Shown here: one piece after another, positions 1 through 9,938 of the stretch
Layout: each line of letters starts with the position of its first letter
Numbering within the stretch: the first letter of the stretch is position 1
Origin: a virus
Length of the DNA: 14,426 nt
UHGV virus genome: UHGV-0061697
Strand: one strand, 5' to 3'
Program-made: the position numbers and the translations under genes
Notes under the pieces: generated by a model
The model's input: only the letters and a program-made list of their open reading frames with translations
Told to the model about the DNA's origin: nothing
Databases searched by the model: none

Positions 1-24
1 GTTATTAGTTATCTTATTCTCAAA

Positions 25-52
25 TTGTGTTACGATAATCAGAGCTGATAAT
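25..52 (+). promoter_or_regulatory. Candidate sigma70 promoter for telN (-35 TTGTGT 25-30, -10 GATAAT 47-52, 16-nt spacer)
   Basis: Hexamers read directly from sequence; GGAG Shine-Dalgarno about 8 nt before the ATG at 66. A direct repeat GATAATC occurs at 34-40 and 47-53. No experimental support. Confidence 0.3.
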
Positions 53-65
53 CTGGAGAGGAAAG

Positions 66-1979
66 ATGAGCAAAGTAAAAATCGGTGAATTAATAAACTC
101 ACTTGTTAGCGATGTTGAGTCAATAGATAACTCTGACCGTCCTCAAGGGGAAAAAACAAAAAAAATAAAGGCTGTTGCATTAAAATTTAAAAATGCATTA
201 TTTAATGACAAGCGAAAGTTTAGGGGGAAAGGATTAGAAAAAAGAATTACAGCCAACACATTCAATGCCTATATGAGCAGGGCCAGAAAACGGTTTGATG
301 ATAAACTTCATCATAGCTTTGAAAAAAATATACATCGCCTATCTGAAAAGTATCCTTTATATAATGAGGAGCTATTGTCATGGCTTTCTCTACCTGCTGC
401 CGATATTCGCCAGAGAATGTCAGCTTTACAGGCAAAATTAAAATTAATTCTCCCTTTATCAGAAGATTTATCTAATATCAGAATTGGTGATAACAAAAGT
501 CATAATAAGTTATTAAAATTATCAAATAAATATAAAGAGTGGCAATTCGCCATATCTGATTTAACTAGCGATAACTGGAAAGATAAGCGCGATTATTTAT
601 ATAAATTACTACAGCAAGGATCTGCCTTACTTGAGGAGTTGAATCAGCTAAAAGTTAACCATGAGATTCTCTATCATCTTCAACTAAGCCCTGCCGAACG
701 CGCATCTATCCAGCAACGATGGGCGGACGTTCTGCACAATAAGAAACGTAACGTGGTGGTCATTGATTACCCTAAATATATGCAAGCTATTTACGATATT
801 ATAAATAGCCCTGCTACATTAAATAATCTAAACACTCGTTCAGGTATGGCTCCTTTGGCATTTGCACTTGCAGCATTGTCAGGAAGACGAATGATTGAGA
901 TTATGTATCAAGGTACATTTACTGTTTCTGGTAAGTATACCGTTGATTTTTTAGGCCAAGCAAAAAAAAGAACTTCTGATGATATAACCAGAAAAATATA
1001 TACATTATGCGAAGCAAAAACATTTGTTTATTTAATAAATGTACTTCGCTCATGCCCAGCAGCATCTGATTTTGATGATGTCGTTAAAGGTTATGGAGAT
1101 AACGACACACGCTCTGAAAACGGACGGATTAATGCCATATTAGCAAAGGCTTTTAACCCGTGGGTTAAATCATTTTTCAAAGATGACCGCCGTGTTTATA
1201 AAGATAGTCGTGCTATTTATGCCCGTATTGCGTATGAAATGTTTTTCCGCGTAGATCCTCGTTGGAAAAACGTAGATGAGGATGTTTTCTTTATGGAAAT
1301 TTTAGGCCATGACGATGAAAACACTCAATTACACTATAAGCAATTCAAGCTGGCCAACTTCTCAAAGACATGGAGGCCAAATACTGGAAACGAAAATACC
1401 AGGCTGGAAGCATTGCAGCAGCTTGATGACGAAATGCCAGGATTCGCCAGAGGAGATGCCGGGGTTCGTCTGCATAACACAGTTAAGCAGCTGGTAGAGC
1501 AGGACCCCTCTATAAAAATCACGAACAGCACTCTAAGAGCATTCAAATTTAGCCCTACAATGATTAGTCGATACCTGGAATTTGCTGCTGATGCTCTGGG
1601 GCAATTTGTTGGCGAAAATGGACAATGGCAGCTGAAAATAGATTCTCCAGAAATCGTTATGCCTGACGAAGAAGAGCTGGAAGCAATACCTGAACAGACG
1701 GATGAATTATCAGAGGATGACGATCTGGATGACGACGAAATTGAGATAGAGGAAGAGGAAGAGGAAGAGGAAGAGGAAGAGGAAGAGAGCGTAGAAGAAC
1801 AGCAACCGCCCGCGCCTTCTTCACCTGTATCTAAGCCGGTATTTAAGCCCGTGAGAAATATTGGTGATGGCTCATACGTTGTTGAGTTTCATTATAATGG
1901 CCAGAATTATGCTTGGTCCGGCATTGCAAACAGCCCTATATCAGCAATGCAGTTAGCATGGCTGACATATTTCGGATAA
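66..1979 (+). CDS. telN: Protelomerase (telomere resolvase) TelN, 637 aa
   Basis: Full-length ORF from track. N-terminus MSKVKIGELIN...RPQGEKTKKIKA...NALFNDKRKFRGKGLEKRITANTFNAYMSRARKRFDDKLHHSF and the C-terminal half (...RVYKDSRAIYARIAYEMFFRVDPRWKNVDEDVFFMEILGHDDENTQLHYKQFKLANF...) match my memory of phage N15 TelN almost residue for residue. Length is about that of N15 TelN (about 630 aa). GGAG RBS upstream. Identity is from recall, not a database search. Confidence 0.9.
   Translation: MSKVKIGELINSLVSDVESIDNSDRPQGEKTKKIKAVALKFKNALFNDKRKFRGKGLEKRITANTFNAYMSRARKRFDDKLHHSFEKNIHRLSEKYPLYNEELLSWLSLPAADIRQRMSALQAKLKLILPLSEDLSNIRIGDNKSHNKLLKLSNKYKEWQFAISDLTSDNWKDKRDYLYKLLQQGSALLEELNQLKVNHEILYHLQLSPAERASIQQRWADVLHNKKRNVVVIDYPKYMQAIYDIINSPATLNNLNTRSGMAPLAFALAALSGRRMIEIMYQGTFTVSGKYTVDFLGQAKKRTSDDITRKIYTLCEAKTFVYLINVLRSCPAASDFDDVVKGYGDNDTRSENGRINAILAKAFNPWVKSFFKDDRRVYKDSRAIYARIAYEMFFRVDPRWKNVDEDVFFMEILGHDDENTQLHYKQFKLANFSKTWRPNTGNENTRLEALQQLDDEMPGFARGDAGVRLHNTVKQLVEQDPSIKITNSTLRAFKFSPTMISRYLEFAADALGQFVGENGQWQLKIDSPEIVMPDEEELEAIPEQTDELSEDDDLDDDEIEIEEEEEEEEEEEEESVEEQQPPAPSSPVSKPVFKPVRNIGDGSYVVEFHYNGQNYAWSGIANSPISAMQLAWLTYFG
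1749..1787. repeat. Tandem hexanucleotide repeat (GAGGAA)x6 plus partial unit inside telN, encoding a poly-Glu tract (13 E)
   Basis: Directly visible: gaggaa repeated six times from 1749 to 1784, then gag. In frame, so slippage would change tract length by two Glu per unit. Confidence 0.95.
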
Positions 1980-2107
1980 AGCATGGCCGTAGAATCAATA
2001 CCCGCCGCCATACACACATCAGATGCAACAAACCACGGTTCGCCGTTAATCATCACTACACGAACCTGATGCTCTTCCTGAAAGGAAAATACTGCTAACG
2101 CGCTCAT
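1907..2107 (-). CDS. Short BRO-N-like antirepressor N-terminal fragment (66 aa), possibly a truncated antB-like gene
   Basis: The N-terminus MSALAVFSFQEEHQVRVVMINGEPWFVASDVC resembles the start of BRO-N/antirepressor domains (F-x-F...VR...I-x-GEPWFVA-x-DVC). The ORF ends after 66 aa and its last 73 nt lie on the opposite strand of the telN 3' end. The ATG overlaps the stop of the upstream gene (ATGA). Confidence 0.45.
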   Translation of the reverse strand: MSALAVFSFQEEHQVRVVMINGEPWFVASDVCMAAGIDSTAMLYPKYVSHANCIADIGLFAMPDQA

Positions 2108-2337
2108 TCAGCCTCCTTATCGTGCAGCAATTGCGACGAGAGCGATGCTGAATAACCCTGTGCTTCGTGTGTGAGCTCACACGCAATTTGAAGAAGTTTC
2201 CCTGCTTCTGAGAGATAAATCGACGCCTCACAACTGGAGATTGTCCGATGGGCTGATGATACGAGCGCATAGACCTGAGCCAGACGTTCATCCAACGATT
2301 CCAGCAGGCCAACAGTGTTCATTTTTACCTGATTCAT
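2104..2337 (-). CDS. Hypothetical 77-aa protein, middle gene of the immA-like operon (antA-like by position)
   Basis: ORF from track (MNQVKMNTVGLLESLDERLAQVYALV...). Start and stop both form ATGA overlaps with neighbours (icd-like upstream, BRO-N fragment downstream). The antA assignment is positional inference only. Confidence 0.45.
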   Translation of the reverse strand: MNQVKMNTVGLLESLDERLAQVYALVSSAHRTISSCEASIYLSEAGKLLQIACELTHEAQGYSASLSSQLLHDKEAE

Positions 2338-2498
2338 GCAGCCACCTCGCGCACCGGAATACGGGCAGACAATACCAGGACAAACCGGCTGGCGAACTGG
2401 CGACGAGCTTCCCGTTCAGATGACGCGATGGTGGAAAGATGATGGATGTGTGACTTTTTGTCTGTGCGAACGATTGCCGCAAATTTGAATTTGAACAT
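2334..2498 (-). CDS. icd: Icd-like small protein (cell-division inhibitor family of P1/N15 anti-immunity operons), 54 aa
   Basis: Not in the ORF track as such; I derived it by translating the minus strand from the ATG at 2498..2496, which has a GGAG about 8 nt upstream: MFKFKFAAIVRTDKKSHIHHLSTIASSEREARRQFASRFVLVLSARIPVREVAA. The S-E-R-E-A-R-R core and L-x-L-S-A-R-I-P-V tail match my memory of Icd-like proteins. Stop overlaps the next ATG. Confidence 0.55.
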   Translation of the reverse strand: MFKFKFAAIVRTDKKSHIHHLSTIASSEREARRQFASRFVLVLSARIPVREVAA

Positions 2499-2549
2499 GG
2501 TATGCACTCCGTTTAATTGGTCGTGCTACCACCAGAGTTCCTACGCTCT

Positions 2550-2632
2550 ATATGGCGGTAGCCCAGACGGGGGTAGGAATACCGGTAAACGAAGAAACCG
2601 GCCAGCTAAAAGCTGCCCCATCTGAGCCACCA
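2550..2632 (-). ncRNA. Candidate c4/CA-like antisense immunity RNA in the leader of the icd operon (boundaries approximate)
   Basis: About 370 nt of non-coding leader upstream of icd on the minus strand. It contains stable hairpins (CCGGU-N10-ACCGG, CAGCU-UUU-AGCUG), a tRNA-like 5' segment (GGUGGCUCAGAUGG), and an element UUCCUACC complementary to two identical copies of GTTCCTACGC (plus strand 2538-2547 and 2704-2713) that flank it. This arrangement recalls the P4 CI and P1 c4 systems. Ends were not determined. Confidence 0.3.
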
Positions 2633-2796
2633 TAAATTTGGTGTACGCAGATTTTACACACAAAAAAACACGCTGGCGCGTGTTGTGCGCTTCATTTACT
2701 CGGGTTCCTACGCCCGGCTACGGGATTTACCGTAGCGGAGTAAACTTTACCGTCAAAACGACGCGCACGTCAATAATTTGCAAAGACATTTTACCC

Positions 2797-2810
2797 CGTG
2801 ACCAGTCACG
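2797..2810. repeat. 14-bp palindromic motif CGTGACCAGTCACG (copy 1 of 3; extended palindrome ccccgtgaccagtcacgggg 2794-2813)
   Basis: Exact 14-mer, the reverse complement of the copies at 7477-7490 and 13483-13496. Lies in the intergenic region between the 103-aa gene and the immA leader; a T-run follows on the plus strand (gtgttttta). Confidence 0.5.
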
Positions 2811-2874
2811 GGGACAGGTGTTTTTATAATTTGCTTGAACGAGTGATCAGAAGTTGATCGTTAATCAAAGGCCA

Positions 2875-3183
2875 TTACTGATTAAGAGATTGGAAATACC
2901 TAACTAACTTACCGGCATCATCACATTTTTCTTTATCTTCGTTCTTAACATAGCCGCGACAAAAGGCTGAATAAAATTTTGCATTTTCAGAAGCAAAAGC
3001 AGCCGTCGAAAGGAGCAGCTCTTTGCATGACTCTTTTGATGCAGCATCGGGATTATTTTTACATGCAAGCTCCGCTGATGAGTTAATAACAGAAATGCTA
3101 TCTTCCTGGGCATAAACCGCAGCAGAAAAGGCAAAACATAAAACAAAAATAAAACTCTTCACTTTATCTCCTGTAACAGTCAT
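2875..3183 (-). CDS. Small secreted Cys-containing protein (about 102 aa, predicted signal peptide)
   Basis: ORF from track. N-terminus MTVTGDKVKSFIFVLCFAFSAAVYA-QEDS has the n/h/c layout of a Sec signal peptide with an AxA-like cleavage site. Mature part has 4 Cys. No lipobox. ATG at 3183 preferred over GTG at 3186. Confidence 0.5.
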   Translation of the reverse strand: MTVTGDKVKSFIFVLCFAFSAAVYAQEDSISVINSSAELACKNNPDAASKESCKELLLSTAAFASENAKFYSAFCRGYVKNEDKEKCDDAGKLVRYFQSLNQ

Positions 3184-8343: not shown

Positions 8344-8940
8344 TCATCTACCCTCAACCATGAATGATTTGATCGTTCCGACTATTTGGTGAACAAATTC
8401 AAGATCGCTTTTCCTGAAGATGGCGCGTTGTGAGTTTGTTCCATCCAGATAGTAATTTTCATCATCAAAACGGGCCAGGCGCTGGATAGTGATATTTCCT
8501 GCAGTATCACGAACCAGAACATCCTCGCCGGGGACCAGTTCCAGCGCAGAATCGACCAGGAGAAAATCGCCTGGCTGATAGTTTCCCTGCGTAAGATTGC
8601 TGATAGTTAACGCATACACAGTATTGCGCTGGCTGATGAATGGCAGGAATCGCTCAGTATTTGGAACCTGTCCCGGCTTCCACTCTTCATCCGGCCCACT
8701 TTCAGTTGTGCCAATAACAGGAATGCGATCAGGGTCATATTCTGTCCCATATAGCACCCAATGCACTGGCTTGCGTAAGCACTTAGCCAGGGCAATACCT
8801 ATCTCCAGTGACGGCATTACGTCGCCACGTTCTAAGTTTTGGACGCCTGCTATAGAGATATCGACAGCCTCAGCAACTTCTCGCAACGTCAGCTTCATCT
8901 CTAAACGGCGTGCTTTCAGTCGTTCGCCTCGTGTTTTCAT
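8344..8940 (-). CDS. cB: Prophage repressor CB (N-terminal HTH, C-terminal LexA/CI-like S24 fold), 198 aa
   Basis: ORF from track. N-terminal HTH LTLREVAEAVDISIAGVQNLERG; C-terminal GDFLLVD...GEDVLVRD...ITIQRL pattern typical of the S24-like domain. Divergent from a cro-like gene across an operator-bearing intergenic region. Confidence 0.85.
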   Translation of the reverse strand: MKTRGERLKARRLEMKLTLREVAEAVDISIAGVQNLERGDVMPSLEIGIALAKCLRKPVHWVLYGTEYDPDRIPVIGTTESGPDEEWKPGQVPNTERFLPFISQRNTVYALTISNLTQGNYQPGDFLLVDSALELVPGEDVLVRDTAGNITIQRLARFDDENYYLDGTNSQRAIFRKSDLEFVHQIVGTIKSFMVEGR

Positions 8941-8962
8941 ACTGTAATCATAAATGATCTTC

Positions 8963-9004
8963 TTATAGCTGGCTATAAAATTTATTTATTATAGCTAGCT
9001 TTAA
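8963..9004. promoter_or_regulatory. Two operator-like palindromes in the cB-cro intergenic region: TTATAGC-TG-GCTATAA (8963-8978) and TTATAGC-TA-GCTTTAA (8989-9004), centres 26 bp apart
   Basis: Inverted repeats read directly. Location between divergent repressor and cro genes is the classical place for repressor operators. A third palindrome ATCATAAATGAT (8947-8958) lies next to the cB start. Confidence 0.5.
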
Positions 9005-9031
9005 TTGTTGTTTATTGTTTATAATAACAAC

Positions 9032-9253
9032 ATGAAACCAGAAGAACTTATTCGCCATTTTGGCAGTGTAGAAAAAGCAGCGGCAGGGGTAGGTGTAACA
9101 CCCGGAGCTGTTTACCAATGGTTAACCGCTGGAGAGATTCCTTCATTGCGGCAAAGCGATATTGAAGTTCGTACTGCTTACAAGCTGAAGAGTGACTTTA
9201 CAACTCGGCGGGTAAAGCAGTCGATTAAGGAGAGTCGTAAGCGTGGAGCTTGA
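9032..9253 (+). CDS. cro: Cro-like HTH regulator (73 aa)
   Basis: Internal ATG of track ORF 9005..9253 (the track start is TTG). MKPEELIRHFGSVEKAAAGVGVTPGAVYQWL is a Cro/CI-type HTH. TATAAT at 9020-9025 sits 6 nt before the ATG, with no Shine-Dalgarno, which suggests a leaderless mRNA. Confidence 0.7.
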   Translation: MKPEELIRHFGSVEKAAAGVGVTPGAVYQWLTAGEIPSLRQSDIEVRTAYKLKSDFTTRRVKQSIKESRKRGA

Positions 9254-9938
9254 ATATATACGCAGCTGCGTCTCTACGGCATTGGCTGATGTTCATTATC
9301 GCCAGCGTGGCATTCTGGAGGTCCAGCTTGAGCAGATGCGTCTCGGTAGATCAGGACGGTTTAACAATAAACCAGTCCGGTCAATCAGTGTGGGGGATGA
9401 TAACTCATACGAAGTGTCCGTTCCTGCTGAGCCGGTTAGATTCCATCAGGGGAAAACATTTAAACAATCATCAATGTTGCTCACTGATATTGATTTTCAG
9501 AGCGCCAGCTGGCGCAGGGCTATTGGTCAGTTGAATAACGAGGAATCAGCCTGGCTTTATTATTGCTACGGATGCAAGCCTGATTACAACAATGATGTGA
9601 TTGTTTGTCAGTGGTTATGGCTTCATTCGGGGGGCGGCTTTAAAAAAATGAAGGCCTCCACGAAAAAAGCCATGCGGAAATTGATTTATTACGCGGCACA
9701 ACAGGTTAAATCAGAACTTACGTGTGCTGAGGCAGTTGATGAGAGAGAACAGGACAGGCATCTGAGTTTTCTACTGAATATATCTATTGATAGCTGGAGA
9801 CAAGATTATAAAGAACGCTGGCTTTTAATTAAGTCGCGATGTCTGAGCTTAAATCGAACTGCATTATTAAATGCGGCGGAGAAGCGCAGTGAAATCATCA
9901 AACGCCATCGGGCAGGAAGTGCCATTCTGCCTTTGTAA
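9243..9938 (+). CDS. Putative Q-like late antiterminator (231 aa); assignment positional
   Basis: ORF from track with GTG start and AAGGAG 10 nt upstream. It follows cro as Q does in the N15 immB region (cB, cro, Q). I cannot confirm family membership from sequence alone. Confidence 0.4.
   Translation: MELEYIRSCVSTALADVHYRQRGILEVQLEQMRLGRSGRFNNKPVRSISVGDDNSYEVSVPAEPVRFHQGKTFKQSSMLLTDIDFQSASWRRAIGQLNNEESAWLYYCYGCKPDYNNDVIVCQWLWLHSGGGFKKMKASTKKAMRKLIYYAAQQVKSELTCAEAVDEREQDRHLSFLLNISIDSWRQDYKERWLLIKSRCLSLNRTALLNAAEKRSEIIKRHRAGSAILPL

Follow-up and report, generated by a model that had tools for sequence, protein, structure and literature searches.

A metagenomic telN contig from the Escherichia coli N15-like phage-plasmids ends short of its probable upstream telomere site

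The cut-and-reseal mechanism of the protelomerases TelN and TelK is established biology of the phages N15 and phiKO2. The accessory repeats of the N15 tos region are reportedly named L2, L3, R2 and R3 in the N15 literature, where autoregulation of telN is likewise said to be described. The target site telRL adjoins telN (PMC10612081), and PMC12624138, citing Deneke 2002, has the 56-bp telRL core accompanied by extra flanking repeats. In this study we analyzed a stretch of 14,426 bp (the window), which an exact-protein look-up identified as an entire metagenome contig with a coverage of 2.2 (ena:ERZ1689702:NODE_412_length_14426_cov_2.200682). We are confident that the window represents the first 14.4 kb in the right arm of a linear N15-like phage-plasmid of E. 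coli from the PhiR46_1/YDC107_1 clade, with the tel site upstream of telN and an assembly that ended before the hairpin tip.

The element itself is already known and belongs to an E. coli clade of N15-like (Ravinvirus-related) phage-plasmids that has been sampled well. Escherichia phages PhiR46_1 and YDC107_1 matched window positions 1-3000 at 96% identity. Positions 1-2500 had matches of 96-99% identity in 32 PLSDB plasmids and in 17 complete E. coli genomes, where they were all plasmid-borne and none was chromosomal. PhiR46_1 (PV340565), YDC107_1 (CP025712) and about 30 clade plasmids from E. coli, Shigella, E. albertii and E. fergusonii showed 96-99% identity over 88-100% of the window and have the same telomere position. 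The window contains the following features:

1-65, plus strand: outer end of an N15-type tos right arm, from alignment with N15, PhiR46_1, YDC107_1, pPEC011-4, MARGA_3 and contig L006
22-38, plus strand: AAATTGTGTTACGATAA, the last (+151) copy of the outward-facing TTGTGT(T) arm repeat, from a motif match and its shared register
34-53, plus strand: near-palindrome of 20 bp, GATAATCAG-AG-CTGATAATC, with 8 of 9 arm positions paired
55-61, plus strand: Shine-Dalgarno sequence GGAGAGG, found by inspection, 4 nt before the telN ATG and conserved across relatives
66-1979, plus strand: telN, for a complete protelomerase (telomere resolvase) of 637 aa, from Pfam, PDB 2V6E and tblastn
1748-1787, plus strand: (AGAGGA)x6.7 perfect tandem repeat within telN, from Tandem Repeats Finder
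2551-2637, minus strand: C4 antisense RNA, Rfam gathering-threshold hit of 73.6 bits
2663-2736, minus strand: isrK-like Hfq-binding RNA, Rfam gathering-threshold hit of 62.5 bits
4103-8098, minus strand: repA-like gene for a primase-helicase replication protein of 1331 aa, Pfam Herpes_ori_bp and Toprim_3
8344-8940, minus strand: cB repressor gene, Pfam HTH_3 and Peptidase_S24
8963-9016, between cB and cro: two 26-nt tandem units with the 16-bp perfect palindrome TTATAGCTAGCTATAA, from tandem repeat finding
9005-9253, plus strand: cro, Pfam P22_Cro
9243-9938, plus strand: gene for the Q antiterminator, Pfam Phage_antiter_Q

The original prediction had placed telN 65 bp from the window edge, and the open reading frame indeed starts with an ATG at position 66. 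Its product matched the Pfam families TelK_N, TelK_muzzle, ResT-TelK_cat and TelK_stirrup with E values of 1e-25 to 1e-50, all above the cut-offs, and residues 1-536 could be aligned to the crystal structure of TelK (2V6E; E = 2e-295). By tblastn, the protein is 80.7% identical to N15 TelN and 79% identical to TelK. The catalytic tyrosine is conserved as Y424, as in N15 TelN, and the active-site region is almost fully identical to that of TelK. The hexanucleotide repeat codes for an acidic poly-Glu linker, and the length of telN among relatives varies by 6-nt steps, giving proteins of 633, 635, 637 and 639 aa. Judged from its sequence, the protein side of telomere resolution is intact in the window.

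Compared with the PhiR46_1/YDC107_1 clade, the window has a different copy number of the hexanucleotide repeat, the A..T haplotype of the 34-53 dyad described below, and lacks 82 bp right after the telN stop codon (junction 1982/1983). These 82 bp correspond to positions 2096-2177 of L006 (NCBI GCA_048599965.1) and are present in L006, in L008 (ERZ1689872) and in pPEC011-4. They hold a perfect hairpin with a 10-bp stem, AAGGCACCGA-ATTA-TCGGTGCCTT, which was not called by a terminator scan, and also the 3' end of a small Bro-N-like gene on the minus strand, which in the window is a 66-aa open reading frame (1907-2107) that overlaps the 3' end of telN. Either a true deletion or, at 2.2x coverage, a misassembly could explain the gap.

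The remaining genes follow the plan of N15. The window is colinear with N15 genes 31-40 and shares with N15 (Ravinvirus, NC_001901) the order telRL-telN-antirepressor region (with a C4-type RNA)-repA-cB-cro-Q, with telRL predicted from the relatives. The C4 and isrK RNAs adjoin each other downstream of Icd-like/antirepressor genes, and the region 2551-2736, which is homologous to N15 genes 31-33/cA, is an immA-type secondary immunity/antirepressor control region as in N15, P1 and P4. The repA product, annotated in relatives as 'primase' or 'CyRepA1 family', is homologous to that of N15 gene 37. Positions 8344-9938 form an immB-type switch of cB, cro and Q, with the two 26-nt units at 8963-9016 presumably being CB/Cro operators of the TTATA-N6-TATAA type. 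The sopAB partition operon lies on the other side of telRL in relatives with phage order, for example MARGA_3.

Similarity to N15 extends to the telomere, since the relatives of the window in the clade have the identical 22-bp telO core and nearly the same spacing between tip and telN. At the DNA level, however, telN and the spacer are too diverged from N15 for megablast, which gave a match only from window position 2162 on (76-78%), and the flanks of the telRL arms are AATTATGTGCTGAT and AATTGTGTTCTGAT in the clade versus TATTGTGTGCTGAT in N15. Klebsiella phage phiKO2 likewise shares the telO core, the spacing and the repeat register, but has a different host genus, extra repeat copies at +86 and +132 and no spacer similarity at the nucleotide level. 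More distant is Yersinia phage PY54 with its Tel/pal system. [quoted passage not shown]

We searched the window for a telomere site of its own. To our knowledge, N15-type phages never carry telRL on the downstream side of telN, which is where the original prediction had looked for it. An inverted-repeat search over the whole 14,426 bp (arms of 14 nt or more, gap up to 60 nt) found no palindrome of tel size, and all inverted repeats passing these thresholds were short and imperfect. The N15/phiKO2 core telO, CCATTATACGCGCGTATAATGG, had no match in the window at up to 3 mismatches. Both searches agree with the original prediction, which had seen no telomere-resolution palindrome within 1980-2870. 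This region has one inverted repeat, at 2775-2832, with 28-nt arms, 71% complementarity and a 9-bp core stem; it is hairpin-sized and lies just beside the C4 and isrK RNA genes, and we rejected it as a tel site. We also rejected TTATAGCTAGCTATAA at 8963-9016, though it is the sole strong palindrome in the window. The broader statement that the window has no tos holds for the palindrome but not for the arms, as positions 1-65 are homologous to the right arm of tos and contain one of its repeats.

Relatives carry the site upstream of telN at a fixed distance. Seventeen related loci have 147 nt or more of sequence upstream of the motif AAATTGTGTTACGATAATC, and in all 17 the half-core GCGTATAATGG begins on that side at a distance of exactly 147 nt from it. 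This places the centre of the N15-type core CCATTATACGC-GCGTATAATGG exactly 126 nt ahead of window position 1 and 191 nt ahead of the telN start codon. The tip is thus 191 nt from the ATG in the PhiR46_1/YDC107_1 clade. The corresponding distance in N15, from the annotated cut (24802/3) to the telN ATG (24995), is 192 nt, and phiKO2 and NAR688 each have 190 nt. The PhiR46_1 record is annotated with a tel site at positions 1-22, and in the alignment window position 1 equals position 138 of PhiR46_1 and position 127 of the pPEC011-4 locus. Degenerate pattern scans of JGI metagenomes and IMG/VR gave 15 extra loci; a degenerate telO+R1 pattern hit 6 loci in the JGI metagenomes, which belonged either to the other haplotypes or to a relative further away. 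IMG/VR had no exact match to the 40-nt upstream variant of the window, and the R1 variant of L006, joined to telO, had none in contigs from one genome per species, hence the telO junction of the window lineage was not recovered.

The ends of related records are informative about the molecules from which they were assembled. The plasmid pPEC011-4 stops right at the centre of the palindrome (GCGTATAATGGGG...), a point 126 nt upstream of window position 1. YDC107_1, pAMSC3 and L027 contain perfect inverted duplications centred on the centre of the tel palindrome, in YDC107_1 with 368-nt arms and zero spacer, and these duplications are an artefact of reading through the hairpin. L011, L014, L019, L021 and L022 end 6-51 nt beyond the centre; the sequence beyond it is fold-back in L011, L019, L021 and L022, and L014 is too short there. 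Many other records end 33-137 nt upstream of window position 1, and the only ones that extend past this range either fold back or join sopA. The records ending at the centre and the fold-back duplications indirectly point to linear DNA that would have covalently closed ends. The telomere architecture of the clade is, as read from these sequences, of the N15/phiKO2 type down to the core sequence and its spacing.

Several of these database records carry traces of the same ends. The RefSeq records of pPEC011-4 (L003, NZ_JBRAXZ010000005.1), pAMSC3 (L004, NZ_CP031108.1) and MARGA_3 (L005, NZ_JAUDQL020000005.1) are declared circular. Both pAMSC3 and the linear GenBank record YDC107_1 (L002, CP025712.1) have two inverted telN copies via hairpin read-through, and in pPEC011-4 a CDS annotated as 'tail assembly protein' spans the artificial join at the telomere tip.

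As the window is a complete contig, the 65-bp margin before telN is a contig end and not an arbitrary cut, and the 300 bp of upstream sequence in which the original prediction wanted a palindrome sought are therefore absent from the ERZ1689702 assembly. Alignment to the relatives places positions 1-65 at the tip-distal end of the spacer, 191 nt in length, that separates the telR hairpin tip from telN. The contig end is about 126 nt short of the tip expected from this alignment, and hence represents an assembly truncation rather than the telomere itself. The expectation that the contig stops at position 1 as it would at a hairpin telomere was thus right about the end and wrong about the telomere.

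Among the matches listed, at least three contigs encode an identical TelN, namely the window, L006 and L008, and they reach 65, 178 and 37 nt upstream of the ATG, respectively, before they end. L006 is identical to the window over the shared 65 nt, continues for 113 nt upstream, and carries, where expected, the R1 arm of telRL (AATTGTGTTCTGAT); it also ends 13 nt before the palindrome centre. Homology thus supports a target site just upstream of position 1, as originally proposed, through the 17 of 17 loci, the common layout of N15, phiKO2 and NAR688, and the R1 arm of L006. We infer that the source molecule of the window carries the tel site, which would consist of the CCATTATACGC-GCGTATAATGG core with flanking arms of about 14 nt, centred about 126 nt past the contig end. 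By analogy with N15 and phiKO2, TelN dimers would bind this palindrome, make staggered cuts 6 bp apart around its centre via Tyr424, and reseal each strand onto its complement to give telL and telR as covalently closed hairpins; junctions of the telRR and telLL type, present after replication, would be resolved likewise. According to PMC12624138, TelN remains bound and shields the hairpins from SbcCD.

The form of the molecule that was sampled is a separate matter, as both a hairpin end and the order sopA-telRL-telN occur among the assemblies of relatives. MARGA_3 has an intact junction sopB-sopA-telRL-telN, i.e., the phage order, and telRL is also joined intact to the sop side in L013, L015, L023-L026 and L010. 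The sampled molecule could therefore have been in this phage or circular order (sopBA-telRL-telN), as virion DNA or a replication intermediate, and the contig end would then be a coverage gap of the kind that a coverage of 2.2 would produce at random. However, the contigs listed with an identical TelN (at least three) all stop before the tip and none runs into sopA, which is suggestive rather than conclusive. The clustering of these three contig ends within 191 nt of the ATG, again among the matches listed, is suggestive of a molecule end. We regard the phage order as possible but less likely for the sampled molecule, the end of which was more likely a hairpin than a telRL junction.

It is far less plausible that the tel site has been lost or replaced and that telN is a remnant in a degraded, circularised or integrated derivative. 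The absence of the palindrome from the contig would fit such a loss, as would the 82-bp gap after telN, which implies a private rearrangement or an assembly error in this copy. Against it, telN is full length with intact catalytic residues, repA, cB, cro and Q are intact, complete E. coli genomes match on plasmids only, the site sits at the fixed distance in all relatives whose sequence reaches far enough, and the contig L006 with its identical TelN has the R1 arm. The original alternative that position 1 is the resolved hairpin end of a prophage is effectively refuted: the contig truly ends there and contigs of hairpin replicons often end at the tip, but positions 1-65 align inside the spacer with homology running on for 126 nt to the centre in all relatives, L006 runs 113 nt further, L008 stops 37 nt from telN and thus shows that breakpoints are scattered and not fixed, and there is no half-telO at window positions 1-15.

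Returning to the reading of the window as a truncated right arm, we compared the repeats that flank the tel palindrome. On the right arm, copies of the motif TT[GA]TGT[GT] lie at +16, +69/70, +94 and +151 from the tip, the +16 copy being the R1 arm of telRL, and this register (+16/+70/+94/+151) is common to N15, phiKO2, NAR688, L010 and the PhiR46_1/YDC107_1 clade. All copies on the right arm face outward except for a sole inward copy in N15, and the left arm has a mirror-image set. The window retains one copy of this accessory tos repeat (22-38), the other three positions being beyond the contig end. This copy, AAATTGTGTTACGATAA, has GATTGTGTTACGATA as its equivalent in N15, kept despite a spacer too diverged for megablast, and resembles the R1 arm of telRL of the same lineage (AATTGTGTTCTGAT in L006). 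The 7-nt motif has a background of 9 matches over both strands of the window (2x14.4 kb). The pattern ATTGTGTKNYGATA matches once, at 24-37, versus 0.06 expected. The right primer for a functional 0.4-kb N15 tos fragment anneals at the homologous sequence GTGTTACGATATCCAGAGAC (PMC2847241), and hence the window includes the outer edge of tos.

The metagenome contig L010 (OKBV01000051.1, 479-700) has a more N15-like telRL, CAACACACAATTGCCCATTATACGCGCGTATAATGGGTAATTGTGTGCTGAT, with a repeat register of +16/+70/+86/+132/+151 and ATTGTGTTATGATAAT units on both arms. It is a distinct lineage between N15 and phiKO2.

The repeat at 22-38 is a putative accessory binding site for TelN. By inspection, it possibly overlaps a candidate extended -10 element, TGT-TACGAT (28-36). 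A scan for consensus promoters found no plus-strand sigma-70 promoter upstream of telN, and a role of the repeat in a promoter or in autoregulation is accordingly a matter of inference.

The 20-bp dyad at 34-53 sits between the +151 repeat and the telN ribosome-binding site and is unique in the window. Across 20 related loci, the paired positions 41 and 46 are A..T in 5 and C..G in 15, and never mixed; the window shares the A..T haplotype with pPEC011-4, pAMSC3, L006 and L020. Comparison of the spacers showed that N15, phiKO2 and L010 lack the dyad. Elsewhere in the window its half-site shows no enrichment (6 matches versus 6.5 expected). The dyad may be an operator. We found no support for an RNA hairpin, as the fold of positions 30-90 was no better than that of shuffled sequences (z = -0.27). 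We know of no earlier analysis of the fixed phasing of the tos repeats or of this dyad. Tentatively, and with considerable doubt, we suggest that the phased TTGTGT(T) array may nucleate a higher-order TelN complex that caps the telomere, that its last unit (22-38) on the telN promoter or 5' UTR may autoregulate telN, and that in this E. coli clade a second regulator may bind the 34-53 dyad, with its covarying positions.

For curation, the contig is a fragment of a common, sequenced clade, and truncation during assembly accounts for the 'missing' telomere site. More generally, replicons with hairpin ends appear in assemblies as records that end at or short of the palindrome centre, as fold-back duplications, and as entries given a circular topology in error. 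How the tos repeats are phased with respect to the tip and to telN bears on the capping of telomeres by TelN against SbcCD (PMC12624138).
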